Shown one piece after another: positions 10,521 through 41,768 of a stretch of DNA of 55,161 bases. This stretch comes from Candidatus Woesearchaeota archaeon. GTDB lineage: Archaea > Nanobdellota > Nanobdellia > Woesearchaeales > DSVV01. The notes under the pieces are model-generated. The model was not told the origin of the DNA and made no database searches. It was given only the letters and a program-made list of their open reading frames with translations. The translations under genes were made by a program, and so were the position numbers. The DNA is taken from positions 1-55,161 of the forward strand of contig JACRKF010000014.1 in NCBI GenBank assembly GCA_016219865.1, in the 5' to 3' direction. Numbering within the stretch: the stretch's first letter is position 1; every line of letters begins with the position of its first letter.

Positions 10521-10522
10521 AT

Positions 10523-11275: not shown

Positions 11276-11333
11276 TAATTAAAATATATTAAACGTATTA
11301 AAACATAATTAAAACTAATAAGAGGTATTTGCA

Positions 11334-13939: not shown

Positions 13940-14040
13940 CCAGTAAACCTCTAATTTTTAATTAATTAAGTTATGATATATTATCTATATAAAAAAAGGG
14001 GAATGGAACAATCTTAGGCTCAAAAAAAGCGCAAGTTACA

Positions 14041-16227: not shown

Positions 16228-16229
16228 AC

Positions 16230-19815: not shown

Positions 19816-19928
19816 TAGCAGGGATTATGGTTTTGGAGCGGGTAATTCGAGCAAAAGAGAATCTTGGTAGAAAACTGCAAAAATTGAAGAAAATTTTGCA
19901 AAGTTCTCTGAACGGAGTGAACTTTTTT

Positions 19929-22980: not shown

Positions 22981-23088
22981 AAGTATTTTTCTGAGTCAAA
23001 AATAGAAGAATATAAAAAGAAGTTAATTAATAATATAAAATAGTTAAAAAAGTGCAAGAGTTACGCTATCTTCACTATTACTGAGCTT

Positions 23089-23121
23089 AAAAAAACGACG
23101 ACTAAAAGGAGGAGTTTTTTT
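23089..23121 (+). promoter_or_regulatory. Conserved SD-containing leader hairpin motif, copy 2
   Basis: aaaaaaacgacgactaaaaggaggagttttttt directly 5' of ATG 23123. Shares aaaaaacgacga and ggagtttttt with copy 1. Confidence 0.45.
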
Positions 23122-23122
23122 A

Positions 23123-24481: not shown

Positions 24482-24555
24482 ATTTATTAATACAAAATAT
24501 AAAAACAAGTTTATTAATAAGCTAATTAAGTAAAAGGTCCGTAAGTTTAGCTAAT

Positions 24556-24580
24556 AAAAAACGACCTAATGGAGTTTTTT
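24556..24580 (+). promoter_or_regulatory. Conserved SD-containing leader hairpin motif, copy 3
   Basis: aaaaaacgacctaatggagtttttt. By analogy with copies 1 and 2 the gene starts at the ATG 3 nt downstream (24584), not at the ATG embedded in the motif (24569). Confidence 0.4.
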
Positions 24581-24583
24581 ATC

Positions 24584-27500
24584 ATGAAAAAAGAGGATAA
24601 GAAGGCAATAATTGTCTTAGTTTTAATTCTGATAGTGTTAGCTAGTTATTTAATTAGTAATCCTGGAGTTTTGTCGACTGATGAGAAGAAAGAGGATTTT
24701 GTTGGGATGGCAGAATATGAAGCTGGTAAAAGTCAATACAAAGCTACACAAGAGATTAAAAAAGTACCTGTTGGGTCATTAGTTACAATAAAAGCAGGCG
24801 GTGGAGGAATTTATGTTTATAAAAAATTAGATGGGAATCAATTATTATTAGTTTATGTTAATGGTAAATCAATACCAGCTCAGAAACCAAAACATGATTG
24901 GGAAGTAACTGCTGCGAGTTATGCTCAAGGAGGAAAATTAACAGCAATTGAATCATTTCCAGAACAACAAAAGAAAGCTGAACCTGCAGAAGCTAAATTT
25001 GATGAAACATCTGATGAAACAGAGGAAGATGTTGCACCAGATTTATCTCCACCAGAAGATACTGATAAAAAGAAAAAAGATGAAACATCAACACCAATTC
25101 TTTCACCAACACAAAAACTTTCTGCAGCAGAATCAACAGCGAAAGTTGAACAGCTGCAAGCAAAAGTATATGATCCTCAGACAAAATCTCTTACAGTTAC
25201 TCAACCAGATGGTTATACAATTACGTTTACTAAAACAGAAAATGGCTGGAAAGATAATTCTGGAAGTAATTATGAGGATACATCACTCGCAGTTGCAATA
25301 AGTAATAATTTAGCTTCTGGAGATTTCACAGGTGTACAATTAAAAACAAATGATGGACAAACACATACAGTAACTGGAAGTGAATTAACATTTGCTAAAC
25401 AACCAGCAACTGCCCAACAACCAACAACTCAAAAACCAGCTGTTGTTACGACAAATGATGATCAAGGAGAAACTGATGGTTTATTTCCAGCAGGTGGAAT
25501 AGTTCCTCCTGAAATTGCTGGTACAGATAATCCAGAATTAGATAAATCTCTTGAAGATGTAAAGGTTCCAGAATCTAAAGCAGGAGAAGATAAATATAAA
25601 GATGCTTTTAAATCTGCAAAGTCAGAAGATGATAAGCCAGAAATTCCTAAACCTAAACTTTATGCAGCTGAGAGTGAGGATGCTCCAAAAGGAAAGAGTG
25701 GAATAGAAACTGCTGCAACAAAAAGTTCTATTGACCAAGCAATTGATCTATATGAACAAGGGGACTATGAAGGTGTAAAGACAATAATGGAGACTGTTGT
25801 AAAAACAGAGCCTTCAACTAATAATTATTTTAAACTAGCAACTGCATTGCAAGCCTTAGGTGAAAATGAAAAAGCACTTGATGCTTATAACAAAGCAAAA
25901 AAATTAGCAAAAAATGATCAAGCAATAGCTAAAATTGAACAACAAATTGAAAATGTGCAAGAGAGTCTAGCTCAAACGTCTGTAGATGTTGAACAAATAT
26001 CTACAGCAACTAAAGTTGTAGAAGCAGAAAAGGCAGCTGCTGATGCTACAGACAAAAAAACTTCAGATGAAGAAAAAAAGACTTTAAAAGATTTAAAAGA
26101 ATGGTGGCAATCTATTTTTGGCAATGATGAAAAAGCAGATTTAGATAAAACTGGACAAGAAGCAGTTGCAGCAAAAAAAGATAGCAACGGTTTTTTACAA
26201 GGGCTTGTTGATTTCTTTTCCTTTGATAGCGATAAGACAACAACACCTGAAGAAGTCATAATGAAACAAGCTACTCCTGAAGAAGAAGCTGAAGTATTTG
26301 CTGATTGGAATTCTGGCGGAGATGATGCTGAAGATGATGTTGAGTTAATAGATGAAGAATCTGCACCTGAAGTTGAAGAAGAACCTATACCTGAAGCAGA
26401 ACCACTACAGCCAATTCCTCCTCTAGAAGTTGCTCCACTAGAACCTGAAACACCCAAAGTTGAAGGACCTATTTATGGACCTCCCACGGGAACAATAAAC
26501 AAACAAGCAACTTCTGAAATAATAGATACTAAACCGGAAAATACAATTGCTAATAACGATGAACTCAAAGTAACGCCAATAGTAGATAAACCAAAACTTG
26601 AGGATGGGAAGTTGACTGCAGAACCTCCAGCATCGACTCAAGCAACTATTACTTATTCTGCACAAGTACATACAAAAACACTTCCAGATGGAACAAAAAT
26701 GGATTACCAACTCCAAACAGGTTCAGATGGATCTACAAAAATAATTATATGTGTTGGAACAGTATGTACTACTTGCCCTAACTGTAAAGTTGAGCATAAT
26801 CCATCAGGTGGAATTAAAATAACAGAACCAAATACAAAAGGAGGAGATGATGATGTTGTTGTTTTTGGTGCTGAAGTTATACCACCAGCACAAACACCAT
26901 CAAAACCAGGAAACATCGAAGCTAAATCCATCGATAATGCTTTAGAAGATATGAAAGAAAGTAATGCTGGTTCAACAATTGAAGTTGATGGATTAAAATA
27001 CACAAAAGGAGACAATGGAAAGTGGACTGCAAAACCTCCAGAAGGCGGAACACATACATTAGGTGATGATGAAGTTGCACAAAAATGTGAAAAGAATAAA
27101 TGTAATACCAAATTAATGTTTGACGGTCAAACAAGAATTTATACTCATGATCCTGAAGCAGAAGAAAAAGTTGAAGCGCAAACAACGTCAGTTGATAAAC
27201 TTATTTCATTTGAATCTTCAGAGGTAACAGGTTTAAGTGGAATCACAGATATAGATAATGCACCAGAAGGTACAACTATTCATGTTGGTGATCAAATTTT
27301 TAAGAAAAAAGGTGGTAAGTTGGTTTTATTGGATGATTCTCTTGAAGAAACAAGCAATTCTGTAGAATTAACTCAAGAGAATAAAGCTAAGCTTGATGCA
27401 GAATTAAAGCAAAGATGTGCGGTGGGTTCAAATGAAGGTTGTGTTATAATAGTTGAATCAGCAGGCGATAAACCAGTACCAAAACCATCAACTAATTTTG

Positions 27501-28681
27501 ATGATGTTGTTGCTAATCTTGATAAGCAAGCTTCATCTGGTTCAATTGCTGTAGTTAATGGAGTAGAATATATTAAAGATATGGATGGTAATTGGGTTGA
27601 GACAAATGATAATACTCACATACTTACTGACCAGCAAATGAAAGGAAAATGTAATGATAACTCTTGTAAATTAACAATTAATGCGGAACAAGGAGTAGTA
27701 GATGTAAAGAATAATAAACCTGAACTAAAAATGCCAGCAACTGTTGGAGCTGATGGTTCTGTTACTTATTCTGTTGGTGAAGGCGATTCAGCAGTTACAT
27801 ATAAAGTACTTGCAGGTGAAACTGATGTGCAAATTTGCAAAGGAGACAAATGTGAGAAATGCGAAAAGTGCGCAACTAAAGGTGGAAAACTTCTTGATTC
27901 TGATGGGAAACCAATAGGCGATTCTCCAGAAGCAGCTAGAGAAAAAGCAGAGGATTTCTGTGTCAAAAATCTTGATGATAAAAAATGCGCTTATGTTGCA
28001 GAAAATTTAAAGAATGCAGTAAACATTGCAACTGCTCCATTTAGAGCAGAAGTTGAAAGGATAGTTGGCTCTTATGTTAATACATTGCTTGATATGGCAT
28101 GGATAGGGAGCAATAGAAATTTCATAATGGCAATGTGCGGAGCAAAGTATTATGAAAAAGAAGGTGAAGCAGTTGGCGCATTTGGCGGGATATCTGACAG
28201 TTGGAAAACACCATTAGGTTATGGAGCGCAAGATCCAGTTGATGCAATTTACGATGGTTTGTTAACAGGAGGAAGCAGTATTATTAAAATGTCTGGAACT
28301 AAAGAAGAAATTACTTCGGAGATGTACAGATATACAGCACGTGTGTTATTGATAGGCAACTTTGAATATACCATATATTTTCAGAACTCTTGCACAAAAG
28401 AGTCATCAGCATTTGAAGGTGGTTTTGTTAAACAAGGAACAGTGCAAGCGCTAGGAGCTCCAAATTATGATATCCAAGATTATCGAGATTATTACTCAGG
28501 TTCATTGACAACATTTGATTGTGCAAATGGCCCATGCAGGTTTGATCAGATATGTGTAAAACGAGATCCAGCAAATGACGATAAAATAGAGAATCCATTT
28601 TGTGTAACATTAGCAAAAGGCAAGTTCAGAACAAAGTTCAAAGACGGCAAGTCTGATGAAGCTGGAAGTGTTGAATGTTGA
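24584..28681 (+). CDS. Family C secreted protein, copy 2 (signal anchor, repeats, TPR-like and acidic/Pro-rich linkers, conserved 9-Cys C-terminal domain)
   Basis: 1365 aa from ATG 24584. N-terminal TM (AIIVLVLILIVLASYLI), TPR-like DQAIDLYEQGDYEG...ALGENEKALDAYNKAKKL, a PE-rich linker, and several ~55-aa repeats each ending in a CxxxxC pair. C-terminal domain paralogous to 21322-22980. Ends ...GSVEC. Confidence 0.8.
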   Translation: MKKEDKKAIIVLVLILIVLASYLISNPGVLSTDEKKEDFVGMAEYEAGKSQYKATQEIKKVPVGSLVTIKAGGGGIYVYKKLDGNQLLLVYVNGKSIPAQKPKHDWEVTAASYAQGGKLTAIESFPEQQKKAEPAEAKFDETSDETEEDVAPDLSPPEDTDKKKKDETSTPILSPTQKLSAAESTAKVEQLQAKVYDPQTKSLTVTQPDGYTITFTKTENGWKDNSGSNYEDTSLAVAISNNLASGDFTGVQLKTNDGQTHTVTGSELTFAKQPATAQQPTTQKPAVVTTNDDQGETDGLFPAGGIVPPEIAGTDNPELDKSLEDVKVPESKAGEDKYKDAFKSAKSEDDKPEIPKPKLYAAESEDAPKGKSGIETAATKSSIDQAIDLYEQGDYEGVKTIMETVVKTEPSTNNYFKLATALQALGENEKALDAYNKAKKLAKNDQAIAKIEQQIENVQESLAQTSVDVEQISTATKVVEAEKAAADATDKKTSDEEKKTLKDLKEWWQSIFGNDEKADLDKTGQEAVAAKKDSNGFLQGLVDFFSFDSDKTTTPEEVIMKQATPEEEAEVFADWNSGGDDAEDDVELIDEESAPEVEEEPIPEAEPLQPIPPLEVAPLEPETPKVEGPIYGPPTGTINKQATSEIIDTKPENTIANNDELKVTPIVDKPKLEDGKLTAEPPASTQATITYSAQVHTKTLPDGTKMDYQLQTGSDGSTKIIICVGTVCTTCPNCKVEHNPSGGIKITEPNTKGGDDDVVVFGAEVIPPAQTPSKPGNIEAKSIDNALEDMKESNAGSTIEVDGLKYTKGDNGKWTAKPPEGGTHTLGDDEVAQKCEKNKCNTKLMFDGQTRIYTHDPEAEEKVEAQTTSVDKLISFESSEVTGLSGITDIDNAPEGTTIHVGDQIFKKKGGKLVLLDDSLEETSNSVELTQENKAKLDAELKQRCAVGSNEGCVIIVESAGDKPVPKPSTNFDDVVANLDKQASSGSIAVVNGVEYIKDMDGNWVETNDNTHILTDQQMKGKCNDNSCKLTINAEQGVVDVKNNKPELKMPATVGADGSVTYSVGEGDSAVTYKVLAGETDVQICKGDKCEKCEKCATKGGKLLDSDGKPIGDSPEAAREKAEDFCVKNLDDKKCAYVAENLKNAVNIATAPFRAEVERIVGSYVNTLLDMAWIGSNRNFIMAMCGAKYYEKEGEAVGAFGGISDSWKTPLGYGAQDPVDAIYDGLLTGGSSIIKMSGTKEEITSEMYRYTARVLLIGNFEYTIYFQNSCTKESSAFEGGFVKQGTVQALGAPNYDIQDYRDYYSGSLTTFDCANGPCRFDQICVKRDPANDDKIENPFCVTLAKGKFRTKFKDGKSDEAGSVEC

Positions 28682-28746: not shown

Positions 28747-30138
28747 ATGAAATTTTACAATAGGGACAAGGAAATAGCAATATTTTCTAAAATCAAAAAA
28801 GATTTTCGAATTGCTATTCTTGGCAGGAGAAGAGTTGGAAAAACACGGTTGGTGGAACATTTCTATAAAAGTGATGCTATTGTCTTCTTTATTCCTGCTG
28901 AAAAGATTGAAAAGCAAATTATCGAAACTTGGAGGGAACAATATCCTGAGCTGCATCTGCCAGAAAGCAGCACCTTTGAGAACTTTTTCAGTTTTGTTTT
29001 TTTTCATTACAAAGATAAGATTATATTTCTTGATGAGATACAAAATGTAATAAAAGTAAATAAGTCTTTTCTTTTCGATCTTCAAAGACTTATTGATAAG
29101 TACAAACCAAAGCTTATTGTTACAGGTTCTTTGATCAGTCCGATGAAAGAAATAATCCAAGAATACCAAAGTCCTTTGTACGGAAGATTTGATTATGTTA
29201 TCAAACTTGATGAGCTCTCATTCAAGACAGTTTATATAATGGGTAAAGATTTACAATTGAAATTTGAGGAAATTGTGCTTTTTTATCTCTTTTTTGGCGG
29301 CATCCCTAAATATTATGAACTTGTTGAAAAGATAGAGCCATTTATTTTAGAGGAGTTTGTCGCAGAAATGTTTATTCGTTATCCTCGTCCATTGTATGAA
29401 GAAGTGAAAATGATGCTTAAAGAGGAATTTGGTTCTGAATATAAAATGTTTTTTTCAATACTTTCTGCAATCTCGCAAGGAAAAAATAAACTTTCTGAGA
29501 TTGCAACTTCTTTAGGCTTAGCAGAAACAAAGATAACAAAATACATCGCTTTGCTTAAAGATGATTTTGAAATCATAACTAGAACAACACCAATCATTGA
29601 CGGCAAGAAAAACATCTATCAGATAAAGAATCATATGTTTTCTTTTTGGTTTGATACTTTGTGGAGGTATAATAATCTGCTTGAAATCAATGCAGAAAAA
29701 GAATTTGAAGAGAGTGTGAAACAACGATTTGGAAACTATCTTGGCGTCCAATTTGAGAATCTATTGCTTGAATTGATCAGAGATAATGTGATTCAATTGC
29801 CTTTCAATCCAGAAAAGATAGGAAAGCAATGGGGTAAAGTGAATTCAGAAATGCTTCCAAACAATCAATATGAGATTGATATCGTTGCATTCAATGAGAA
29901 AAACAAGAAAATAGCGTTTTTTGAATGTAAGTTGAAACAAAATGTTAATGCGCAGAAAGTGCTTGCTGATCTGCAAACAAAAGCACAATATGTTCATTGG
30001 AATATAAATAACAGAACGGAGTATTATTTCATAATCGCAAAAAGCTTTACAAAAAAAATAGCAGCTACAAATGGAGCTTTTGTATTTTGCATTGACTTAA
30101 TTGATATTGAAAATTATCTCAAAAAAAGTATTAAATGA
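28747..30138 (+). CDS. Archaeal ATPase (Arch_ATPase-type AAA+) with DUF234-like C-terminal domain
   Basis: 463 aa with Walker A LGRRRVGKT and Walker B IIFLDEIQ. The C-terminal segment FENLLLELIRD...YEIDIVAFNEKNKKIAFFECK is typical of the DUF234 nuclease-like fold. Confidence 0.75.
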   Translation: MKFYNRDKEIAIFSKIKKDFRIAILGRRRVGKTRLVEHFYKSDAIVFFIPAEKIEKQIIETWREQYPELHLPESSTFENFFSFVFFHYKDKIIFLDEIQNVIKVNKSFLFDLQRLIDKYKPKLIVTGSLISPMKEIIQEYQSPLYGRFDYVIKLDELSFKTVYIMGKDLQLKFEEIVLFYLFFGGIPKYYELVEKIEPFILEEFVAEMFIRYPRPLYEEVKMMLKEEFGSEYKMFFSILSAISQGKNKLSEIATSLGLAETKITKYIALLKDDFEIITRTTPIIDGKKNIYQIKNHMFSFWFDTLWRYNNLLEINAEKEFEESVKQRFGNYLGVQFENLLLELIRDNVIQLPFNPEKIGKQWGKVNSEMLPNNQYEIDIVAFNEKNKKIAFFECKLKQNVNAQKVLADLQTKAQYVHWNINNRTEYYFIIAKSFTKKIAATNGAFVFCIDLIDIENYLKKSIK

Positions 30139-30240: not shown

Positions 30241-30999
30241 ATGCACATAAATGATTCAGCATTCATTCAAAGCTTTAAACAAAGAAAAGATTTTATATTT
30301 TATGTATTTCTTGATATTATCTATTATGTCTTGCTTTTAGGGATAATTGCATTTGTAGGGAGAGTTGTGTATCCTAAACTTGTTTATCTCCGAGGAGTAA
30401 AGGAAATGCTTAATGGAATGCAAAAATCTTCTTTTTATGAACTTCAAGCAACATTTACATATATAAGGGAAACTTATTATGGATTCTTTATTTATGCAGC
30501 AATAGTTATCATTTGTTTATTCTTACTTTATACTTTCTTGAAAAGTTATTTTTGGTATAAAGTAAGAGGTGAAAGCTATACATTAAAAACACTTCTTAAA
30601 TTTTCATTCTTAAATATTGTAATGCTTTGTTTATTTGTTCTTGTTGGGTATATTATCATAAAAGTGATTAATCAGCAGAATCAAGTAACAACATTGCTGC
30701 TAATCTTATATCCAGCAGCATTATATAGCATTAATCTACTGCATCTTTTGTTGGCAATACATAAATCATTGAGAAAGACAGCGAAAGCATTCTTTTCATT
30801 AGGAATTGTGAAATTCTACAAATTTATAATTCCTTATCTATTTATGATTGCAATACTTATCATATTGCTTTATTTTATGATTTTACTTCAATTTTTCTTG
30901 CCAGATTATGTTTATTATATCATTTATCTTATACTTTTTGTAGTCTTCACTACATGGTGTAAACTATATCTTCTTAAAATAATTGAAAGAAATCAATAA
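30241..30999 (+). CDS. Hypothetical polytopic membrane protein
   Basis: 252-aa ORF with about 6 hydrophobic segments. No family recognised. Confidence 0.55.
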   Translation: MHINDSAFIQSFKQRKDFIFYVFLDIIYYVLLLGIIAFVGRVVYPKLVYLRGVKEMLNGMQKSSFYELQATFTYIRETYYGFFIYAAIVIICLFLLYTFLKSYFWYKVRGESYTLKTLLKFSFLNIVMLCLFVLVGYIIIKVINQQNQVTTLLLILYPAALYSINLLHLLLAIHKSLRKTAKAFFSLGIVKFYKFIIPYLFMIAILIILLYFMILLQFFLPDYVYYIIYLILFVVFTTWCKLYLLKIIERNQ

Positions 31000-31032: not shown

Positions 31033-31041
31033 TTTATAAAT
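31033..31041 (+). promoter_or_regulatory. BRE/TATA-like promoter element upstream of the second surface-protein cassette
   Basis: aaagTTTATAAATaa, followed by AAGGAG SD at 31057-31062 and ATG 31066. Confidence 0.45.
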
Positions 31042-31065
31042 AATAAATCTTCAAAAAGGAGTATA

Positions 31066-33027
31066 ATGAAAAAAAGGGGTATGGTAACATTATTTATTAT
31101 TATAGGTCTAGTTCTTTTGATACTCATAGGTCTTTTTTATTATCTCAAAGAAAGTTTGATTCTGAAAGATATATTTGTGCCTAAAGAGATTATTCCACTG
31201 CAAAAATATGCTGAGAAATGCATCAGAGATTCAGCTTCACAAGCTATATTTTTAGCAAGTATGCAAGGCGGATATATTGAACTTCCTAAAAAGATTGCTA
31301 AAGATCCAGAAGCGTATATTTTAACAGGGTTTAAGGTTCCGATGTGGTATTATAAAGCAGAGGATAGAACACCAAGCTTTCAATCATTTATATTTTATCT
31401 TGAAAGTTATATTAATGAACAATCATTGCAGTGCATTAATAATTTTGAACCATTCAAAGAGCAGTATGAAATAAATGAAATTAAAAAAATAACAACAAAA
31501 GTAAAATTAAATGATCAAGAAATGATTATTGATTCTGCATTAGATACAACAGTAAAAGTAAAAAATAAAAATACTATTCTTAAATTCCCAAAGATTACAA
31601 CTAAACAACCAACAAAGATAAAAAAATTATTTTTGCTGGCAAAAGAGATTATGCTGCGAGAGAATACTGACAATTTTTTAGAAATTCTAACAGATGATAT
31701 GATTGCTAGTTCTGATTATCTGCCATATGCTGGTGTTGAATTAACTTGTGATGATAGGACATGGACTGTAAGCAGCATGATTCCTTATATTAAAAATATG
31801 ATTGTTCATAATTTTAAGTTCTTAACATTTGAAGATACTGCTTATTTGCCAACAGGTTATGATTATTATGAAAAGCAATACAGAATTTCATTGAAAGGAA
31901 ATAATTACAAAGATCTGCAGGTTAATACAATCTATAATCCTAAATGGAATTTTCAGCTTGATGTAACGCCAAGTAAAAATGGCATAGTTGAACCACTGGA
32001 ATTTACAATGTCAAATTTTGTTTTTGCGTGCGTAAAACTATATAATCATAAATATTCTGCGCAATATCCGTTGTTATTTCAAATTATAGATAAGGATAAT
32101 CCTGATAATGTTTTCTATTTTGCCACACCTGTGTTAGTCAAGAGAAATGAGCCAAATAGATATAATGAAGTTCCATTATGGCCAAGCGAAGATGATACTG
32201 AAACAAATACGCAATATTGCAATGATAATGAACCAATCACTCAAATGGTTGTTGGAGAAAATAATCAAATATTTGCAAAAACTGCAACAAAACAAAATAG
32301 GAAAAATGCATTAACGATTTACGCATATGATGCATCGCTAGATATTTTTACTGGATTGCTAAACAATGTTACAATCTCTTACCAATGTGTTAAATTCAGA
32401 TGCGAGATAGGCAAAACTAACTATCCTAAAGATATCAATGATGTTTATACTGGTTCAAATCCTTACTTAAAAGCATTATTCCCTGATTGCGAGAATGGAA
32501 TAATTACTGCAGAAAAACAAGGATATCTTCCTGCGAAATTGCATCAAACAGTAAGCGCAGAAACAAATGAATATGCTGTGAATATTCCAATGACAAAATT
32601 GAAGCAGTTTAAAGTGAGGATGCACGTATTTGAAGATAATACATATGGCGGAAACGAAGATAATGAAAATAAAAATGTTGAAAGAGATATGTTGGCAACA
32701 GAATCTGTATTGATAACATTAAAAAATAAAGGACGGTTGTATGATAAAATGATTTATTATCCTAATGATGAGAACAATCTTGAATTAATGGTAGCAAATG
32801 AACCTTATGAAGTTGAAATTAAACTTATAGAGAATGATGAGATTGTCGGAAAAGCATCTTATACATGGCAGCCAGAGTTGGAACAAATACAATTTAGAAA
32901 TGGCGTGTTATTTTTTGTTGGAAAGATTCCTCAATCATCAAGTAATATGGTAGAACAATATAAACAGTTGCAGAAAACAGAGAATAAAAATAAAGGCAGT
33001 GTTGAACCAAGGTTGACACTTGGTTAG
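31066..33027 (+). CDS. Family A surface protein, copy 2 (class-III/pilin-like signal peptide)
   Basis: 653 aa. MKKRG|MVTLFIIIGLVLLILIGL fits the archaeal prepilin-peptidase type signal (basic leader, Gly, hydrophobic stretch). Paralog of 14041-16227. Confidence 0.8.
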   Translation: MKKRGMVTLFIIIGLVLLILIGLFYYLKESLILKDIFVPKEIIPLQKYAEKCIRDSASQAIFLASMQGGYIELPKKIAKDPEAYILTGFKVPMWYYKAEDRTPSFQSFIFYLESYINEQSLQCINNFEPFKEQYEINEIKKITTKVKLNDQEMIIDSALDTTVKVKNKNTILKFPKITTKQPTKIKKLFLLAKEIMLRENTDNFLEILTDDMIASSDYLPYAGVELTCDDRTWTVSSMIPYIKNMIVHNFKFLTFEDTAYLPTGYDYYEKQYRISLKGNNYKDLQVNTIYNPKWNFQLDVTPSKNGIVEPLEFTMSNFVFACVKLYNHKYSAQYPLLFQIIDKDNPDNVFYFATPVLVKRNEPNRYNEVPLWPSEDDTETNTQYCNDNEPITQMVVGENNQIFAKTATKQNRKNALTIYAYDASLDIFTGLLNNVTISYQCVKFRCEIGKTNYPKDINDVYTGSNPYLKALFPDCENGIITAEKQGYLPAKLHQTVSAETNEYAVNIPMTKLKQFKVRMHVFEDNTYGGNEDNENKNVERDMLATESVLITLKNKGRLYDKMIYYPNDENNLELMVANEPYEVEIKLIENDEIVGKASYTWQPELEQIQFRNGVLFFVGKIPQSSSNMVEQYKQLQKTENKNKGSVEPRLTLG

Positions 33028-33035
33028 TAGTTGGC

Positions 33036-33083
33036 AGTTAGTGGTTTGCAGTATTGCAGTAAATTTGCAGCTTACCACTAACT
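33036..33083 (+). other. Structured intergenic spacer between family A2 and B2 genes
   Basis: 9-bp stem agttagtgg / ccactaact enclosing a 30-nt loop with three ttgcag repeats, followed by a G-poor actaac/ctact-rich tract up to about 33115. Confidence 0.35.
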
Positions 33084-33135
33084 ACTTATTACTAACAACT
33101 AACTTATTACATACTAGAAAAGATGTGAAGCAATT

Positions 33136-36100
33136 ATGAAATACCAAAAATTTATCAGCTGTTGGTTAATCGGTTTAATAATTTTATTCCCAGTAGCTTT
33201 TGCTCTTACAATTAATCCTGAGTCAGTTTTAGTATCACCAACTGATAAAAGCGCTGAGATTAACTGGACAACAGATATATTAGCAGATGGAAAAGCGCAT
33301 TTTGGAGAGAGTGTTGACAAACTTAAAACAATTCCAGATACTGCAGGATTTCAAATTCAGCATAGTGTAAATCTAAACTCTTTAGATCAAGGTACAAAGT
33401 ATTTCTATAAAGTTGAATCTGGCGACGGAGCAGTAATAACTGCTTTAGAAACATTTAAAGAATTTTCCACACTTTTGTCATCGCCGCAAGGATTGACTGC
33501 AAAGAAGATTGGTTTTAATGAAATACAATTAACATGGCAATTGAATCCAAAAGCAACTAAATACAAGATTTATCTTAATACTTCAGAAAATGATAAATCA
33601 AATGGTAAAGCTATTGCTGAACAAGCAACAAATGAATATACTATCAAAGAACTTGCAGCTGATACTGAATATGAAATACAAGTAAACTGCATTGATAATC
33701 AGAATAAAGAGTCTAAACTTTCAGAAGTATTGCTTGTAAAGACAATTAAGAAACCATTGGAAATAAAGTTTGCGCAAGCGCAAGATATTTCAAAAACATC
33801 TGCAGTAATTAATTGGATAACAACAGAAGATGCAAATAGCACAGTTATGTATGGAAAAACTAATTCATTGAACTTAATTCAAGCTGACTCAGAATTAACA
33901 AAGAATCATTCAATTATTCTTATAAATCTTGATGAGAATACAAAATATAATTATAAAGTAAAATCTAATGATATTGAAAGTCAAACACAAAGCTTTGCAA
34001 CACTCAGCAATGAGAGTATTGAGATAACAAATATAAAAGTGTCTTCTACCAGCAAAAGTTCTGCTGTAGTTGAGTGGGATACTAATATTGCTAATGCTGG
34101 AGAGGTTGTGTATAGCATTGATGATGCATTTTCAAATTCAGTCAAAGAAGCACAGCCAACAAAACAACATACAGCAAATCTTCAAAACTTACTTTCAGGA
34201 ACATTGTATTATTTTAAAGTAAAAGCAGCTGAAACAGTTTCTCCTTATTCTGCATTTACAACAAATGAATCACTTGGCTCATTTTTGACATTGATTGATG
34301 CGCCAACTATATCAAATAGTTATAATATTAATGTCTCTGGCAAGTCAAAGCCAGGAGCAAAATTGTATATTTTTGTCAATGAGCAAAAAACAGCTCAAGT
34401 AATCACTACACTTAAAGAATCTGGGGAGTTTAAGAAGGAAATAAAACTAAATCAATATGCTAACTATAATAATATTCAAGGCAATAATCTTGTGCAAGTT
34501 ATGTCCTGGGATAAAGCTGGGAAAAAAGATAAAGCAGAATTTACTGTGCTTTTAGATGTTGTAAAACCAGAATTGCAGGTCAATCCTTTTACAAAATACA
34601 CAAGCAATTCTAATCTTAATATCTCTGGAATGACAGAGTCAAATGCAACAGTTGAATTGTTTATCAATAATGCAAGCAAAGGTTTTGCTTTAGTGAATGA
34701 ATCTGGATTTTTTAGTAAGATTATTGCATTAAGTCAGAACAATCAGACTGTAAAAGCGCAGGCAAAAGATGCAGCTGGAAATATTAACTTTTTTGAACAG
34801 CTTGTAACATTGGATAAAAAAGCGCCAACAATCACTTTTGAAACACAGTTTGCTTCTGAGACTCATTTTAAGTTTTTGACAGTTACAGGACAAACAGAGC
34901 CATTTACTAAATTGTATATTACAAATTATGGAGAATTTACTGGCTGTAATGATATTCAGTTTACTAATAGAGTTGGCAAGTGCACAACATTTGTTTCAAA
35001 TAAATATATGCTGCCATCAACTGTTGTTTCAGCTAATCTTGATCCATTTGGCATTGTATTTGGAACAACTCAAGAAGTTGATACAGGTGAAGATGGAACA
35101 TTTACAGTAAGAGTGCCAATGTTTCAAGGATTGCAAAAAGCAGCAGCGATGAACAAAATTCAGTTTCTTGCAGTTGATGATGCAGGTAATACACACGAAG
35201 TTACTAAGTCTATCAAATATAATCCAGGCTGCAATGATTGGGCAATTAATTTTGGTGAAGTAAAAGCATATCCATTTAATATTTATACAAAAGAATTAAC
35301 TGCTCAAAGTTTACAAGCAAGCGCGTTTATTCCAATTCAATATATTGGAACAGGTTCACCAAAAATAGGAAATATCATAGTTATGGAAGATGATGTAAGT
35401 GTTCGTGAAGGGTTGTTGGGTAAGACTGGAGAAATTATTTCGCAAGAAGATGGCAATAAATATGTTTCAATTCAAAATTATAAAGTAAGTCAATATGATC
35501 CAATAACAGGCAAGGCGTATATTTATGTTCCTTTAACATTTTCAAAATATACAGGAAAAATGGATGATTTGAAAGATCAAATTAATGTTTATCTTAAAGC
35601 AAGCATTAATTATAATGTTAATTCTGTTTCTACTTCTCCTAATTCAGCTGCTAATCCAAGCAATCTTCAACCGCCATTGCAAAGTCAGTTTACACAAGCA
35701 GGCGCTGCAAGCTGTGAAGTATTTCCAATGCTTTCATTTAGCATTCAAAAACCACTTGATTATAGTCTATGGTTAACACCAAGCATGATCAATAAATCAA
35801 TTGAAGTTCTCGATAAGACAATTGATACAACGCAAGATATTGTTGATGTTGCCAAAAAAGCTTCAATGTACACACTTCTTGCATGCGGCGCAGCTGTAGC
35901 ATTTCATTATTTATCAGCTGCATTTGATGGTTCAAGCGATGCAAATATTGCAAGCAGTGGTAATGTAAATAGTCAATGCAGAGAATCTGATCAAGGATTA
36001 GAAACAGTATATTATATCTGTGACAGAGTGCTTTGTCCTGCTGCTCCTCCTGTATGCGATGATTTTCAAGCGCAAGGAAAATGGATGAATAAAGAAAATG

Positions 36101-39100
36101 GGGCAGAGTTAGATGCTGCTGAACAAGCAAGATTAGCTGGGCAGAATAAAGCGTATGAGGATGAATATCAGCGATTGAAAAATAGCAAGCAATTTGCTAA
36201 TCCAAAAGATTATTACATTCCAAGAGAGACATTTATTAAAAATAATCCAACTTTATTTAGTGATCAAAATAAATTTAAGGGATATACACCATTACAACCA
36301 CCAAATTATTTTACAACAACAATTGGCGCAGATGGCACGCAAGGTTATGAAGTAGAATATTATCCTCTGCAAAATGGAAAACTGGCAGATAGAGATTCTA
36401 TCCGTGTTCCTGTTGGTGATAAAGAGGTCACTATTAATCTTGTCAATAATCTTGAACAGCAGGTAAAGAGAAGCTGCAAGCCAGGAGATCAAACATTAAT
36501 TAGATATACTAAATTTGATAAAAACAAACCTTCTTTTATTGCTGGAGGATTAACTACTACTTATGAAGATCAATTTGAATGTTCGTCAAAACCTGTAGAA
36601 GAGTTAGGTATGCCCAAAGCAGGAGAATTTGTTGGCTGTTATAATGCAGAATGTCCGCAGTTTGATGATACAAAATGTTTTGGAAGCTCTGCTGCGCCAA
36701 TCAATCCACCTGAAGGATTGTGGGCATCTGCAAGATGCGGATGTTTGCCGGGTATAAAAGGTCATCTTGAAAATCTATTGCGAATTATGCAAGGCGCTAG
36801 AAAATGTTTACAGCAAGCGCAGATTGGAGAAGTACGCGGCGGATATTGTGAAAGATTGTTAGCGCAGTTTATCTGTGATATTTTTGTAGAGCTTGTATTA
36901 AAATCACTTTTCAAGTCATCATCCAGTGGTGGAGGCTTGCTTGGAGGATTATTTGGCGGATCTGATGTAAAAGATTACAAGTCTAAATCTGCTTCTGTTG
37001 AAGAACGGCTATCTCAAAGATATGGTGGAATTTTGAAGGATAGATTTGGGTTGTCATCAGATCAACTTATCAATAAATTTTGCATCTTTTCAATTACTTT
37101 AGATTGGTCATTGCTTGAAGATGTATTAAATCAAGTTGTTGATTCAATTGAAGTTGCGCCAATTACGCATTTAGAAGGTGAATCAAGAGCATATGGATAT
37201 GATCCATTTACAGGCAAAATGAACATTGGCTATAATGTTTATTTGGGAATTGTTCCAGGCGGTTCAACTGATGTAAATATGTGGCTGGAATGCGACAGAA
37301 ATTATGATGGTGGAGAATTATGCGGCACTGCTGTACCACGATATACGGAAATTCCAGGCTATCGAAGGCATTTTGAAAAACAAGATATATTTGACGAGAA
37401 CTTGCCATTTGTTGTTGCAAATAGTCAATGGTGGTACAATAAAGTTGTGCTTGAAGTTAATTATAGAATAGGCAATAAAATTGAACATAAGATAATTGAA
37501 AGAGCTGTGAATAGAAAGGGTGATTTGGCAACAGGCTGCACATTTTCAATTACAGAAGGCATTAGTTGTCAAGGATTAACATTTTTGCAAGAGCAAGGCG
37601 GCATTATTGAATTGTATAAAGAAAGCGCAGCAAATGGCGGCACAATATTAACGCCAAAAGCTTTAACTTATTATATGGGCAATAATGTAAATGCATTAGT
37701 TAGATTAAGGAATGAATTCAAGAAAGATTTATTTTTTATTCGTGTTGATTATAATGACGGCAGGCAGTCAATTGAATATCCAATTCCAACAAATCAGAAT
37801 ACTTATGGCAGTGAACAAACTTATTTGTTGTGGATTGACACGATTGGCGGAAGTTCACAAGTTGCTGGTTCTCAAGGATTACATTGGCCTTCTTCTCGTC
37901 AAGCTGGACAAGCATTTAATGTTCAGAAATTTGATTCTGGAGATTATAAGGATAATTATTTATTGCTTGAATTAAGCAATGGGGATGCTGCAACTGTAAC
38001 AATTACTGCTGAAGTATTGAATAAAGAGAATAAGATAATTGATGCTGATAATTTTAATTGTCTTGTATTTAATAAAGCAAAATATTCTGACAAAAATGCA
38101 ATCTATAGTAAATATAGCGCATATAAAAAAGGTAAAATGAAAAGTAATTCTATTCAAGAAGATAATGATGGTATTGAAAGAATTGCAGATGATGGGAAAA
38201 CAATCTGCTTGCGTGATGGTGATACTTTAAAGTCAAATGGCGAAGATGTTTCAATAAATAAGATTGTCAGAATTATACAAATGCAAATACAACCATTTAC
38301 GATGCAATCTATTGTTCCATTAAATACTCAAGAAATTCCTCAGTTAAAATTGATTACTAATGCAAATGAATTGCTTGTGCCATTTGAGCTGCAGCAAATA
38401 ACACCTGTGACAACAGCAGGAAAGACAGCAACAATCAATGTGTTCCAAGATACAAATGGCGATGCAAAAGGTGATACGCTAATATTGTATGATAATACAT
38501 TGCAGAATAATCAACAGCAATCTATACAATTGCAATATCTTACAGCAGCTAATCCTGCGCAGAATGCAAAACCAATGATTGAGCTTCTTGAGCCAATAGG
38601 CAAATTCTTTAATCCAGAAGGAAGTATTCCATTAGGTGTTTCAATTATTGATGATAATAATTTAGCAAAAGATGGCGCAACTGCTTCAACACTTGAATTT
38701 ACAATACATGGTTCTGGCACAAGTAAAATGGCTCCATGTAAAGATACATTTGAATTTGATACATCTGCAAAAGAATTCATAAAGAAAAGTGGAAGTGGTG
38801 GTTGTAATATAGAAGTTGATAATGATAGAAAAATAGACCATTCAAAATTAAATTTTTATGCTTTCAAAATTGATGATGCTAACAATCCTATGAAAAGTCA
38901 TAAAGGGCCAGATGATATTTATGATATAACAGCAACAATTACAGATGCTAAAGGACTTTCTGACAGTAAAAGCAAGCAAAGTGTAAGATTCGATCAAAAA
39001 AAAGGAGAATATGAATTAAAAAGAGAACACATAATTATCTGTCTTGGAAGTTATGATTGTTATTCATGGGCTAATGCTGAAGTGGCATCGAATTTAATTC

Positions 39101-39159
39101 CACAGCAGTCAAATGCTAATGAGAATAAAGTTATTGTGAATCCTGGGCAGGTTAATTGA
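33136..39159 (+). CDS. Family B giant secreted protein, copy 2 (FN3 array, Ig-like repeats, Cys-rich core, long C-terminal region)
   Basis: 2007 aa with Sec-type signal (..ILFPVAFALT). Four FN3-like modules (e.g. PQGLTAKKIGFNEIQLTWQLNPKATKYKIYLN), Ig-like modules (NVSGKSKPGAKLYIF, NISGMTESNATVELF, TVTGQTEPFTKLYIT), and a Cys-rich core collinear with copy 1. Confidence 0.85.
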   Translation: MKYQKFISCWLIGLIILFPVAFALTINPESVLVSPTDKSAEINWTTDILADGKAHFGESVDKLKTIPDTAGFQIQHSVNLNSLDQGTKYFYKVESGDGAVITALETFKEFSTLLSSPQGLTAKKIGFNEIQLTWQLNPKATKYKIYLNTSENDKSNGKAIAEQATNEYTIKELAADTEYEIQVNCIDNQNKESKLSEVLLVKTIKKPLEIKFAQAQDISKTSAVINWITTEDANSTVMYGKTNSLNLIQADSELTKNHSIILINLDENTKYNYKVKSNDIESQTQSFATLSNESIEITNIKVSSTSKSSAVVEWDTNIANAGEVVYSIDDAFSNSVKEAQPTKQHTANLQNLLSGTLYYFKVKAAETVSPYSAFTTNESLGSFLTLIDAPTISNSYNINVSGKSKPGAKLYIFVNEQKTAQVITTLKESGEFKKEIKLNQYANYNNIQGNNLVQVMSWDKAGKKDKAEFTVLLDVVKPELQVNPFTKYTSNSNLNISGMTESNATVELFINNASKGFALVNESGFFSKIIALSQNNQTVKAQAKDAAGNINFFEQLVTLDKKAPTITFETQFASETHFKFLTVTGQTEPFTKLYITNYGEFTGCNDIQFTNRVGKCTTFVSNKYMLPSTVVSANLDPFGIVFGTTQEVDTGEDGTFTVRVPMFQGLQKAAAMNKIQFLAVDDAGNTHEVTKSIKYNPGCNDWAINFGEVKAYPFNIYTKELTAQSLQASAFIPIQYIGTGSPKIGNIIVMEDDVSVREGLLGKTGEIISQEDGNKYVSIQNYKVSQYDPITGKAYIYVPLTFSKYTGKMDDLKDQINVYLKASINYNVNSVSTSPNSAANPSNLQPPLQSQFTQAGAASCEVFPMLSFSIQKPLDYSLWLTPSMINKSIEVLDKTIDTTQDIVDVAKKASMYTLLACGAAVAFHYLSAAFDGSSDANIASSGNVNSQCRESDQGLETVYYICDRVLCPAAPPVCDDFQAQGKWMNKENGAELDAAEQARLAGQNKAYEDEYQRLKNSKQFANPKDYYIPRETFIKNNPTLFSDQNKFKGYTPLQPPNYFTTTIGADGTQGYEVEYYPLQNGKLADRDSIRVPVGDKEVTINLVNNLEQQVKRSCKPGDQTLIRYTKFDKNKPSFIAGGLTTTYEDQFECSSKPVEELGMPKAGEFVGCYNAECPQFDDTKCFGSSAAPINPPEGLWASARCGCLPGIKGHLENLLRIMQGARKCLQQAQIGEVRGGYCERLLAQFICDIFVELVLKSLFKSSSSGGGLLGGLFGGSDVKDYKSKSASVEERLSQRYGGILKDRFGLSSDQLINKFCIFSITLDWSLLEDVLNQVVDSIEVAPITHLEGESRAYGYDPFTGKMNIGYNVYLGIVPGGSTDVNMWLECDRNYDGGELCGTAVPRYTEIPGYRRHFEKQDIFDENLPFVVANSQWWYNKVVLEVNYRIGNKIEHKIIERAVNRKGDLATGCTFSITEGISCQGLTFLQEQGGIIELYKESAANGGTILTPKALTYYMGNNVNALVRLRNEFKKDLFFIRVDYNDGRQSIEYPIPTNQNTYGSEQTYLLWIDTIGGSSQVAGSQGLHWPSSRQAGQAFNVQKFDSGDYKDNYLLLELSNGDAATVTITAEVLNKENKIIDADNFNCLVFNKAKYSDKNAIYSKYSAYKKGKMKSNSIQEDNDGIERIADDGKTICLRDGDTLKSNGEDVSINKIVRIIQMQIQPFTMQSIVPLNTQEIPQLKLITNANELLVPFELQQITPVTTAGKTATINVFQDTNGDAKGDTLILYDNTLQNNQQQSIQLQYLTAANPAQNAKPMIELLEPIGKFFNPEGSIPLGVSIIDDNNLAKDGATASTLEFTIHGSGTSKMAPCKDTFEFDTSAKEFIKKSGSGGCNIEVDNDRKIDHSKLNFYAFKIDDANNPMKSHKGPDDIYDITATITDAKGLSDSKSKQSVRFDQKKGEYELKREHIIICLGSYDCYSWANAEVASNLIPQQSNANENKVIVNPGQVN

Positions 39160-39176: not shown

Positions 39177-41102
39177 CTATTTTATATTAACAAACATTCT
39201 TTTCTGAGGATTGTATTCGAATAAACCATTTGATTGGTTAAAGATAATCTTTTGAGAATCAGACTTGAATTCATTATAACGGAAGAAAACTGTTATTTGA
39301 TTATTATGTAAAAAACTAATATTAAATGATTTTTCTATATAGCTTCTTCCATGTCTAGATAATGGATTAGGTAATTGTAAAGGAGATAATAAATAATTAT
39401 AGATTAGTTTAATATCTGTTCCAAAACATTTGTAAATATTGATAACAGGGAGTTTTGTTCCATTAACTAATTGTTCATTACCTTTACTATATAAGAATAT
39501 TTCGTATTGTGGATCACTATTGACAATATTTGCAAGAGAATAAATATTATAGTTTATTATGTCATCTTTCTTATTAAATATTAGTTTTCCATGGCTATCG
39601 TGTATTTGTAAATACTCGGCGTTGTTAATTCTTCCCATTTTCTGTTCAATCATTTCATTTCCAGGATTGTCACAAATATCTGCTATAATTGGGCCTTTTG
39701 AGAGAGCAATATTAGTTGTTTCTACAATTAATCTTCTTTCTTTTCCATTAATAAACGAAGAAACAATTATTCCTTCTGAATTATTGGTGATATTTATTAT
39801 TTCTGCACCAATATCTTCCCGTTTTGTTTTGTTAGTTTCTTTATGTACTTGCTGCCAATACCAAATAATCGATCCTGCAGTATCTTCAATTGCCAATGGA
39901 ATTAATTCATCTGCTAACAATGCTGCTAATGATTTTCTTTCTGGGAACTTTGGTGTTTTTGTATAATGAGATTCATTATCTTTGTTTATTACCATCCTAA
40001 ATAATTGTTGAACTTCATTTATTGAATCTAATTGTGTAAATCTTTCTACCCAGCCAATCTTAAATATTTCTGGAAATGCCTGCATTGATGCTTCAATATA
40101 GAACCAATCTTCTTTCTCTTTTTCATTAGCTGGTTTGGGGAAATCTTTTGTTTGCCACCAATCATCTAATATTGCATAACTGCCTCGCCACATACCCTCA
40201 AAATAAGGATTTAAGTCATGCTTCCAATGATTGCCATCAATTCTCCAGCCAGTATTAGCTAAGTCAACCCATTGATCTTGGTAATGCAATGAAGGAAACA
40301 TCTTTCCAAGTATTCCTAACTCTGCTCCTTTTTTTTCTCTTTCTGTATCTTTAAGATTTGCAGAAAAGCGATTTATGGTATATCCAACAAATGAACCTAA
40401 TCTGAAATAATCTTCAATTGAACGTATTCTTAGTGGATTATTCTTATCTAGTAATGGCAATGTTTTTTTGTTTTGTAATGTAATATCACAGTAATGTTCA
40501 AAACCAAATTGGTTGGTAATGACAAATCCAGCCGGAGCTATAAACGCATGAGCTTCTAAGTTTGTGTGTTCAGGTAATGTAACATCTTGAACTAAATGGA
40601 GAACATGGGCTAATGCAAAATAAGCTCGTTTTTTATTTTGTTGGTATAATCTGATAGAATCTTCAAGATCGCAAAGATTATATTTATCATTCAATCCCCA
40701 GTCCATTGCATTCTTAAATTGGTGTGAAGCAATTGGTGATGAATTAAGATAACCTTTGTTATCAATTGGACGAAAAAAATGATTAAAAAATCTTGTTCTT
40801 GTGTCTCCTGCAATATTACACATTGCATTATAATCTACAGATTTATTCATTGCAGGAAATATTGAATCTTCATCAGCAACACCTTCTTTTAAAATTGCAA
40901 GCATTGGCTTTATTTCATCACATATTTTTTTGTGTTCTTGTTTTTGACAAATATATTCAACAGCTTGCTCAGTAATCCATTGATGCACATTAATCTCATG
41001 GGCTTTTGCTGGTTTTGCAGTTTGCATTACAAGAGTTGCTGTTAAAGCAATTGCACTGTATTTTATTGTTCTCCAACAGTTGTTGATGATAGTTGTAAGC
41101 AT
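39177..41102 (-). CDS. Secreted zinc-dependent phospholipase C-like (PLC / S1-P1 nuclease fold) protein with ~400-aa unknown C-terminal region
   Basis: Signal peptide ...LVMQTAKPAKA followed by HEINVHQWITEQA, then FNHFFRP, LAHVLHLVQDVTLPEHT and FGFEHY, matching the ordered Zn-ligand motifs of the Zn_dep_PLPC family. Start at ATG 41102; TTG 41126 is an alternative. Confidence 0.7.
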   Translation of the reverse strand: MLTTIINNCWRTIKYSAIALTATLVMQTAKPAKAHEINVHQWITEQAVEYICQKQEHKKICDEIKPMLAILKEGVADEDSIFPAMNKSVDYNAMCNIAGDTRTRFFNHFFRPIDNKGYLNSSPIASHQFKNAMDWGLNDKYNLCDLEDSIRLYQQNKKRAYFALAHVLHLVQDVTLPEHTNLEAHAFIAPAGFVITNQFGFEHYCDITLQNKKTLPLLDKNNPLRIRSIEDYFRLGSFVGYTINRFSANLKDTEREKKGAELGILGKMFPSLHYQDQWVDLANTGWRIDGNHWKHDLNPYFEGMWRGSYAILDDWWQTKDFPKPANEKEKEDWFYIEASMQAFPEIFKIGWVERFTQLDSINEVQQLFRMVINKDNESHYTKTPKFPERKSLAALLADELIPLAIEDTAGSIIWYWQQVHKETNKTKREDIGAEIINITNNSEGIIVSSFINGKERRLIVETTNIALSKGPIIADICDNPGNEMIEQKMGRINNAEYLQIHDSHGKLIFNKKDDIINYNIYSLANIVNSDPQYEIFLYSKGNEQLVNGTKLPVINIYKCFGTDIKLIYNYLLSPLQLPNPLSRHGRSYIEKSFNISFLHNNQITVFFRYNEFKSDSQKIIFNQSNGLFEYNPQKRMFVNIK

Positions 41103-41197
41103 AAGATAAGGAGAATGTGGTGGCAATATTTAACTTTTGTTATTTGGTAGTTGTTATATCACTAAATTTATATACAAGCTATTGTTTATATAGTTAT

Positions 41198-41401
41198 ATG
41201 CCTACAACAATTCAAGTAAATAAGCATACGTTGCTTTTATTAAAAAAAATAAAGGAAGAAACAGCATCTGTATCTTATGATGAAACTATACGTAAGATTG
41301 CTAATGAGAGAATAAATTCCTCTTCAATGGCTGGTATATTAGGTAAAAGAACACATAAATGGATCATGAATGATCTGAGGGATAAAAGTGATAGGTTCTA
41401 A
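41198..41401 (+). CDS. vapB: VapB-type antitoxin
   Basis: 67 aa. MPTTIQVNKHTLLLLKKIKEE...SYDETIRKI is paralogous to 51952-52149. Overlaps the downstream PIN gene by 14 nt. TATA-like aaatttatatac upstream. Confidence 0.7.
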   Translation: MPTTIQVNKHTLLLLKKIKEETASVSYDETIRKIANERINSSSMAGILGKRTHKWIMNDLRDKSDRF

Positions 41402-41768
41402 ATTAATAGATTCTTCAATTTGGCTAGAATTTCTAGCAAATAGTAGTTATCAAGATCTGATAGAATCTAACGAAGTTTTGTTTGTTTCTTCTGTTTCAAT
41501 ATTTGAGATTAGAAAGAAATTGCTAAAAGAAAAGATAGACAAAGAAATTATCTTGAAAAGTATTAATTTCATAAAAGCAAGAAGCCATTTTGTAATACCT
41601 ATATCAACACAAATAGCAGAGAAAGCAGCAGAAATATCAATGGAGTTTAAACTTCATACAGCAGATGCTTTTATTTATACAACTGCCTTGCTTAATGATT
41701 GCTTGTTGATTACTGCTGATAATGATTTTAGAGGATTAAATAGTGTTCAAGTGCTAGAAAAACCTTAA
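41388..41768 (+). CDS. vapC: PIN-domain toxin VapC
   Basis: 126 aa starting at a GTG inside the vapB end. Carries the four conserved acidic positions (LIDSS, SIFEI, ADAFIY, ADNDF). Confidence 0.8.
   Translation: MIGSKLIDSSIWLEFLANSSYQDLIESNEVLFVSSVSIFEIRKKLLKEKIDKEIILKSINFIKARSHFVIPISTQIAEKAAEISMEFKLHTADAFIYTTALLNDCLLITADNDFRGLNSVQVLEKP

Follow-up and report, generated by a model that had tools for sequence, protein, structure and literature searches.

A six-gene operon of Woesearchaeota-type archaea with prepilin-like leaders and giant secreted proteins, a candidate multi-subunit cell-surface structure

In archaea, the class III (prepilin-type) signal consists of a basic leader of few residues, with a small residue at position −1, followed by a hydrophobic helix. 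In the Sulfolobales, the bindosome proteins GlcS, AraS and TreS are large extracellular proteins with an N-terminus of this blueprint and are encoded away from their assembly machinery. The Sulfolobales also have SlaA, a secreted protein of very large size, and SlaB, which is smaller and anchored in the membrane; both are acidic and rich in beta-sandwiches, and their genes are adjacent. In modular type IV pilins, e.g. PilB of S. sanguinis, a prepilin N-terminus is fused to a bulky functional module (PMC8179133). The present analysis concerns a 55,161-nucleotide (nt) stretch of a Candidatus Woesearchaeota archaeon genome (assembly GCA_016219865.1, contig JACRKF010000014.1; termed here the window; 31% GC), which contains an operon termed A1-B1-C-D-A2-B2. 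All six operon products are membrane or exported proteins, and they most likely assemble into one multi-subunit cell-surface structure, a reading to which a probability of roughly 0.55 is given.

The A proteins are similar to GlcS, AraS and TreS in their apparent size, location and N-terminus and in being encoded apart from any assembly machinery. They differ in having no substrate-binding-protein domain, no ABC transporter neighbor and a giant secreted partner, and their leader is known from sequence. Similarly, the A/B pairs share with modular pilins and with the adhesin-like proteins of archaeal type IV filament (TFF) system 2/4G a prepilin-type N-terminus carrying a bulky module and an adjoining giant rich in immunoglobulin-like (Ig-like) and fibronectin type III (FN3) modules; unlike these systems, the operon is without a TFF ATPase, platform or peptidase gene, and the A head and B core are without detectable relatives. 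The adjacency of a very large secreted and a smaller anchored protein, their acidity and their beta-sandwich content recall SlaA/SlaB, however neither sequence nor fold gives a match, the anchor sits at the N-terminus and resembles that of prepilins, the operon has two pairs among its six genes, and glycosylation sequons are not enriched. Surface proteins of archaea are already known to carry prepilin-type and Sec signals and arrays of FN3/Ig modules; what is new is the operon form and a central domain without known relative. A search of the available literature yielded no description of the operon.

The genes of the operon in the window are as follows.

14011–19775, + strand: proximal pair, A1 (open reading frame 14041–16227, leader from 14011) and B1 (16230–19775); from BLASTP, profiles and synteny
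21322–28681, + strand: two C-family genes (21322–22980 and 24569–28681); from synteny and classification of locus open reading frames
30241–30999, + strand: D, membrane protein of 252 amino acids (aa); from hydropathy and its conserved position 5′ of A2
31066–33027, + strand: A2, 653 aa; from the open reading frame, homologs and an AlphaFold2 (AF2) model
33136–39159, + strand: B2, 2007 aa, giant protein with predicted Sec export and without membrane anchor; from the open reading frame, hydropathy and orthologs

The open reading frames of A2 and B2 are those given in the initial annotation of this locus. A1, B1, the two C genes, D, A2 and B2 together have 6,743 codons over 25,119 nt (14041 to 39159), in agreement with the earlier count of about 6,500 codons for secreted proteins within 25 kb.

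The neighborhoods of A2 homologs and a scan of species-representative genomes were compared, with open reading frames of each locus classed by BLAST and family hidden Markov models (HMMs). At least 12 different genomes of Woesearchaeota type, with identities as low as ~23%, keep the order A1-B1-C-D-A2-B2. This order is displayed by loci L004, L005 (= L011), L006 (= L008), L010, L013, L014, L016, L017, L021, L024 and L029; L020 deviates solely by having D upstream, and L018 and L019 are cut short, yet fit the same order. Locus L029 has a GC content of 50% and its proteins are only ~23%–24% identical to those of the window, yet by reciprocal best hits each pairs with the corresponding family of the window. 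Shortened or rearranged forms also occur: B1-A1-D-A2-B2 (L023), A1-D-A2-B2 (L025) and C-A2-B2 (L009, L015). A2 and B2 are neighbors in all loci except one, and the pairing of A with B is retained even in a remote lineage (L027) where the other operon genes are missing. Gene order and sequence comparison indicate that A2-B2 forms the distal pair of an operon that is ancient and vertically inherited and that by present evidence is confined to Woesearchaeota-type Nanoarchaeia (DPANN).

In other genomes a single C gene is present between B1 and D. In the window C is duplicated; the two copies, 552 and 1370 aa, have the C-terminal ~330 aa in common and the longer one has a TPR-like stretch. This duplication, together with inserted genes, has stretched the operon to 25 kb. 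The inserts are two paralogous AlbA_2/Schlafen genes with HATPase_c_4 and winged helix-turn-helix domains (19827–21278 and 23123–24481, the second of which splits the two C genes) and an ATPase_2/DUF234 gene (28747–30138). The AlbA_2 and ATPase inserts are absent from that place in other genomes; the closest relative (A2 88% identical) has a similar operon disruption. D has about six hydrophobic segments and its orthologs are directly 5′ of A2 in most loci. A role of D as an in-operon prepilin peptidase was considered and rejected: 12 orthologs gave no Pfam match (Peptidase_A24 included), the GxGD motif is missing, and a single Asp is conserved.

The two pairs are paralogous, but not to the same extent. 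A2 and A1 align by BLASTP (E-value = 4e-21, 26% identity), and a profile-profile alignment with hhalign of 14 A1 and 23 A2 orthologs extends over the full length (probability 100%, E-value = 1.6e-76), as expected of the paralogs that they were first described to be. The duplication is ancient, again as previously proposed, since both pairs are reciprocal best hits in genomes that are only ~23% identical to the window.

The naming of B1 and B2 as one family holds only in part. BLASTP shows no match between them and thin profiles give a marginal signal (probability 23%). With 13 B1 and 17 B2 orthologs, however, hhalign aligns three stretches of B1 to the Ig-like modules of B2 (probability 82%–97%, E-values 1e-5 to 4e-10). 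In addition, a Cys-rich module with the pattern C..CLPxI...C...A...C....IC is common to both, at aa positions 1008–1081 of B1 (window positions 19251–19472) and 1188–1253 of B2 (probability 82%–91%, E-values 1.1e-5 to 1.1e-6). An HMM of the B2 core made from 156 diverse representatives matches 13 B1 orthologs, always in the same place (E-values 3e-10 to 3e-4), and matches no other open reading frame of the loci. B1 and B2 thus have a common body plan (Sec signal, Ig-like array, Cys-rich module) but cannot be aligned over their whole length.

The A family is most readily recognized by its N-terminus, with the consensus MKKRGQ[VI][TS]xFIIIGL. The basic leader of the A proteins ends in Gly, Ala or Ser and is followed by Q[IV][ST] and ~20 hydrophobic residues. 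The A2 protein begins MKKRGMVTLFIIIGLVLL; its leader is residues 1–5, i.e. MKKRG/MVTLFIIIGL, where the slash marks the predicted cut. A motif of the form [KR][GAS]/[QMFVI][IVLT][STA] before a hydrophobic stretch is present in 66 of 73 non-redundant A sequences, mostly with the cut after residue 5, and 53 have Gln at position +1. The hydropathy of A2 (Kyte-Doolittle mean, 19-residue window) reaches a maximum of 3.14 within residues 1–34. Retention of the motif in 66 of the 73 sequences makes it plausible that the leader is an archaeal class III signal, and the class III-like leader first read in A2 is by the same comparison a trait of the family.

The leader is followed in A2 by a hydrophobic helix (residues 6–29), a Cys-stabilized alpha/beta domain (40–370) and beta-sandwich domains (388–650). 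The AF2 model (pLDDT 86.3) has a helix at residues 3–29, then a break, and places an invariant QGGY motif and the Cys residues in the alpha/beta domain. The 47 homologs of A2 are 620–770 aa long and, where named, are hypothetical proteins of Woesearchaeota or of an “archaeon”. Pfam shows no domain in any of these 47, nor in A1, A2 or B1, and searches of Pfam, NCBIfam and PHROGs with A1, A2, B1, C, D and the B2 tail gave nothing useful. The A-family profile has no match among Protein Data Bank (PDB) sequences. A Foldseek search of PDB with the A2 model gives weak matches with the beta-sandwich part only, to Gram-positive pilins and adhesins and one transthyretin-like domain, the best being the SpaA pilin 5hbb (E-value = 1.7e-4, query TM 0.12); the alpha/beta domain has no known relative there.

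B2 is analyzed next. Its parts are listed here.

33205–34275, + strand: four FN3-type modules, B2 residues 24–113, 114–204, 205–292 and 293–380; from Pfam
34276–35235, + strand: three Ig-like modules, residues 381–475, 476–562 and 563–700; from Pfam and hhalign to B1
35653–37815, + strand: conserved core, residues 840–1560; from conservation and the AF2 model
36556–37575, + strand: signature domain, residues 1141–1480; from phmmer
36697–36894, + strand: 66-aa Cys-rich module common to B1, residues 1188–1253; from hhalign and the core HMM
37816–39156, + strand: variable C-terminal region, residues 1561–2007; from column conservation

The N-terminus of B2, MKYQKFISCWLIGLIILFPVAFA/LT (...PVAFA/LT), reads as a Sec signal. 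Beyond it, hydropathy shows no clear transmembrane segment in B2, with one borderline hydrophobic helix at residues 1241–1259. The protein ends with KVIVNPGQVN, without a C-terminal hydrophobic segment, and does not have the features of a PGF-CTERM/archaeosortase substrate. B2 has 32 Cys residues and a pI of 5.2; B1 has 29 and a pI of 4.7 and is otherwise similar (Sec signal, no anchor).

The Pfam parse bears out the four FN3 and at least three Ig-like modules that the initial annotation had recognized. FN3 modules 1–4 match Pur_ac_phosph_N/fn3 with E-values of 1.7e-6, 3.5e-10, 4.7e-9 and 2.8e-9, and B2 is above the Pfam gathering score for both families (fn3, 72.1 bits, cut-off 25; Pur_ac_phosph_N, 87.6 bits, cut-off 30). 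The Ig-like module at residues 476–562 matches Big_6 (E-value = 2.7e-7, 37.5 bits, cut-off 27.6), and the two that flank it match Glucodextran_B with E-values of 1.8e-3 and 3.5e-4, both under the Pfam cut-off. Residues 24–380 and 476–562, which are above the curated cut-offs, are under a third of B2. Past residue ~700, through the C-terminal region, there is no Pfam match, and residues ~700–2007, the signature core included, belong to no described family.

Full-length orthologs of B2 are found in Woesearchaeota with chain lengths of 1,850–2,260 aa, the best annotation being “fibronectin type III domain-containing protein”. Column identity is highest at residues 1150–1400 (0.6–0.8) and lowest after residue ~1550 (0.23–0.40 in the C-terminal region). 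A C-terminal region of ~1000 aa had been described as absent from B1. This is roughly so: B2 extends ~750 aa past the shared Cys-rich module, and its core is also much larger.

The core of B2 has long helices, one of 49 residues, beta-sandwiches and 14 invariant Cys residues, and is the most conserved part of the family (AF2 model of residues 840–1560: pLDDT 74.4, pTM 0.68). Its signature domain carries ...RCGCLPGIKGHL...CLQQAQIGEVRGGYCERLLAQFICD...RYGG.... The core family is characterized by a domain of ~340 aa with RCxC[LI]P...C..Q/TA..G.....G.C......CD...RY motifs and eight or more invariant Cys residues. A phmmer search with residues 860–1560 against 1.84 billion representatives yields 358 clusters with E-value = 1e-3 or less, 176 of them at 1e-10 or less, and essentially all are in proteins of 1,000–2,800 aa or their fragments. 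Named members are only hypothetical proteins of Woesearchaeota, Nanoarchaeota or Nanoarchaeia; some genome records bear the submitter title “uncultured Methanosarcinales archaeon”, and these labels could not be verified. A word-indexed homolog search with the core alignment found two fragments only. Foldseek shows no match of the core at E-value = 1e-3 or less in PDB or BFVD, and PDB sequence searches with the core profile and with the B2 tail gave no match. An origin of the core from a viral fusogen or a phage tail has no support, as there is no Foldseek match in either database.

Proteins of the core family differ in the number of FN3 modules before the core: 50 have none, 29 have one, 21 have two, three have three and 36 have four, and a further protein has two modules after the core. 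B1 proteins have none. This range, from none to four across the wider B family and none in B1, shows that domain accretion is real, as was proposed for the diversification of the pairs. The array of B2, first described as added, is not a recent addition; the four modules are already present in 14 of the 17 B2 orthologs, and by this comparison the array is old.

Two elements near the start of A2 and one between A2 and B2 are listed below.

31033–31041, + strand: TATA-like box TTTATAAAT, upstream of A2; read directly
31056–31061, + strand: AAGGAG Shine-Dalgarno-like hexamer, 4 nt 5′ of the A2 ATG; read directly
33027–33116, no strand assigned: ~90-nt palindromic dispersed repeat between A2 and B2; from folding, read depth and comparison with relatives

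The TATA box and the Shine-Dalgarno sequence are as originally read. The closest relative has the same extended TATA string, TTTATAAATAATAAATCT, but reads AAGTAG at the Shine-Dalgarno position; farther 5′ the sequence is diverged, with a 41-nt indel. The TATA 9-mer itself is no rarer than chance (2 matches, 5.2 expected). The box is centered ~29 nt 5′ of the A2 ATG. At the TATA-to-start spacing usual in archaea, a transcript from this box would be leaderless or have a very short leader. It would then exclude the Shine-Dalgarno sequence, which could act only on read-through mRNA from D. D overlaps A2 in several genomes, and transcription running through from D is therefore ancestral.

A1 and B1 are separated by 2 nt and A2 and B2 by 108 nt. 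The latter spacer was noted before as structured, and both its length and its hairpin are confirmed (positions 33023–33096, dG = −36.4 kcal/mol, z = −3.6, with one of 200 shuffles folding as well); it is not conserved, however, but is a lineage-specific insertion. The A2-B2 spacing in most loci is −4 to +5 nt, with a few at 30–145 nt. This overlap or near-abutment in most genomes suggests translational coupling and matched amounts of the two proteins. In L001, L002, L003 and L007 the spacer is 30 nt and the repeat is absent. The closest relative has a 30-nt spacer without the repeat, and compared with it the window has ~78 extra bases between GGTTAGTAGTTGG and AGAAAAGATGTG. In the source sequencing run the summed depth over 33027–33116 is 60–100, as opposed to 7–8 on either side, and an independent assembly breaks at the repeat. 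The repeat is single-copy in the window; at least eight further contigs carry it, on one strand or the other, with 85%–95% likeness and unlike flanks. It is a dispersed palindromic repeat resembling a miniature inverted-repeat transposable element and not a conserved regulator. A metagenome scan with a 20-nt degenerate pattern of the repeat, and tRNA and Rfam scans of the window, gave no match. Sequence near-identical to the window is present in a groundwater metagenome run.

The proposed structure may work in the following way. A2 would be inserted by its class III (prepilin-like) N-terminus, cut after Gly5 by a prepilin peptidase encoded elsewhere, and kept in the membrane by its hydrophobic helix, with the disulfide-stabilized head displayed on a beta-sandwich stalk. 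B2 would be exported by Sec, fold around its disulfide-rich helical core and be held at the surface through binding to A2. The Ig-like and FN3 modules and the variable C-terminal region of B2 would point outwards and may make contact with particles or with the cells of a partner or host. The A1-B1 pair would add another layer or arm to this structure without being redundant, and C and the polytopic D may be accessory or platform components.

A more specific form of this proposal is that the operon encodes a lineage-defining and hitherto unrecognized surface machine of Nanoarchaeia, which are ultrasmall and presumably host-dependent: prepilin-type anchors A1 and A2 would hold the giant, disulfide-rich B1 and B2, which have a novel fold, and the whole would be used for contact with partner cells. 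This form is tentative.

Several observations weigh against assembly into one surface structure with prepilin-type anchors. The +1 residue of A2 in the window is Met and not the usual Gln. The conserved leader of A1, ILGSKKAQVT (followed by MFIIIGL), is in frame at 14011–14040, 5′ of the called ATG, and has no ATG, GTG or TTG start in the window; the ATG at 14003 is out of frame and meets a stop after four codons. An independent contig (~7x depth) gives the same 5′ sequence, and the startless leader could represent a 1-nt indel, a non-canonical start or a leader in decay. Genes for a prepilin peptidase, a TFF ATPase or a platform protein are missing from the window and from most flanks. The operon need not have all six genes: L012, L026 and L027 have only A2-B2 within 10 kb, and L028 has a lone B. 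The high conservation of the core could equally mean an enzymatic or lattice role and not adhesion. A run search found no RNA run containing the window sequence.

Another explanation is that the operon encodes an S-layer or outer canopy in which B forms the lattice and A the membrane stalks, as in SlaA/SlaB. Deep conservation, an apparently single copy per genome, a core more conserved than the outer modules and the location of a smaller anchored protein beside a large, acidic and secreted one are all consistent with this, and S-layer proteins of archaea commonly have Ig-like and FN3 arrays. However, A1, A2, B1, B2 and C have no match with S-layer family models in Pfam or NCBIfam, two A-B pairs with C and D exceed the parts that known S-layers need, and A is anchored N-terminally by a prepilin-like leader, unlike SlaB. 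N-glycosylation sequons are depleted and not enriched in the B2 and C families (17 N-x-S/T seen in 17 C-family proteins, 88 expected); depletion as a general trait was rejected, as it holds in these two families only. An S-layer is unlikely.

It is more doubtful still that A1 and A2 belong to the true type IV pilins, as modular minor pilins or tip pilins that a TFF machine encoded elsewhere would polymerize, with B1 and B2 as pilus-associated adhesins. The conserved class III-like leader fits this, and large modular pilins and TFF loci with Ig-rich, adhesin-like proteins are known (PMC8179133; bioRxiv 10.64898/2026.04.22.720090). One remote locus, L027, also gives a hint. It has the A-B pair without the rest of the operon (A of 708 aa, leader KKKRGQITIFF, E-value = 1e-119 with the A HMM; B of 2,340 aa). 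A gene for a T2SSE-family ATPase (5918–7027 of L027) is located two genes upstream of the pair, on the opposite strand, and this is the only sign that links the system to the machinery of type IV filaments. By contrast, the window and the flanks of L004–L006, L028 and L029 contain no gene for a TFF ATPase, a platform protein or a prepilin peptidase. The pilin fold, a long continuous alpha-1 helix on a small globular domain, is not displayed by the A2 model, where the predicted helix breaks after residue 29 and is followed by a ~330-aa alpha/beta domain and beta-sandwiches. The A proteins are 620–770 aa long, with an alpha/beta head unlike pilin folds; the Foldseek matches include no pilin with an alpha-1 helix. 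Lacking linked TFF genes and having a non-pilin fold, the A proteins do not qualify as members of the pilin family. That a protein with a class III signal need not be a filament subunit is known from the sugar-binding proteins of Sulfolobus.

Least probable is the initial proposal of two independent paralogous anchor and adhesin cassettes diverged toward different targets: the paralogy of A1 and A2, the modules shared by B1 and B2, the varying FN3 number and the variable C-terminal region of B2 are in its favor, but lineages of only ~23% identity still have the two pairs together, separated by C and D in an unchanged order, none of the extra copies or swaps typical of adhesin arsenals were seen, B2 orthologs retain their architecture (four FN3 modules in 14 of 17), and this fixed co-inheritance argues against alternative cassettes with distinct binding specificities, the pairs being instead the ends of a single operon.

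The genes that flank the operon in the window are of other types. Upstream, a MoxR-type AAA_3 ATPase gene split by an intein with a LAGLIDADG endonuclease domain (11334–13883) ends a BatA/VWA/DUF7408/DUF7502 cluster (3328–13883). This MoxR/VWA/BatA cluster was considered as part of the system and rejected, as it is not beside A1 in other genomes. Downstream and convergent to B2 is a gene for a 649-aa protein without family match (39177–41126, − strand); of the compared loci, only the closest relative (with a protein of 876 aa, 62% identical) and its near-identical contigs have it beside B2. Small PIN or PIN-like genes are found farther downstream at 41388–41768, 46027–46515 and 51594–51983, of which only the first is a confirmed PIN, and AAA_14/DUF4143 ATPase genes are scattered among them. 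This suggests that the downstream region is rich in toxin-antitoxin or defense-type genes.

The core domain of B2 is present in hundreds of clusters, yet has no name, Pfam model or structural relative. The A family adds large non-filament proteins to the likely substrates of archaeal class III signal processing. To our knowledge, DPANN archaea of Woesearchaeota type are not in culture, and the operon is a candidate for the means by which they attach to other cells or exchange material with them. The A leader, the B core and D are targets for metaproteomics, for labeling in cryo-electron tomography and for structural work in enrichments, and the operon is a marker for comparative genomics of the clade.

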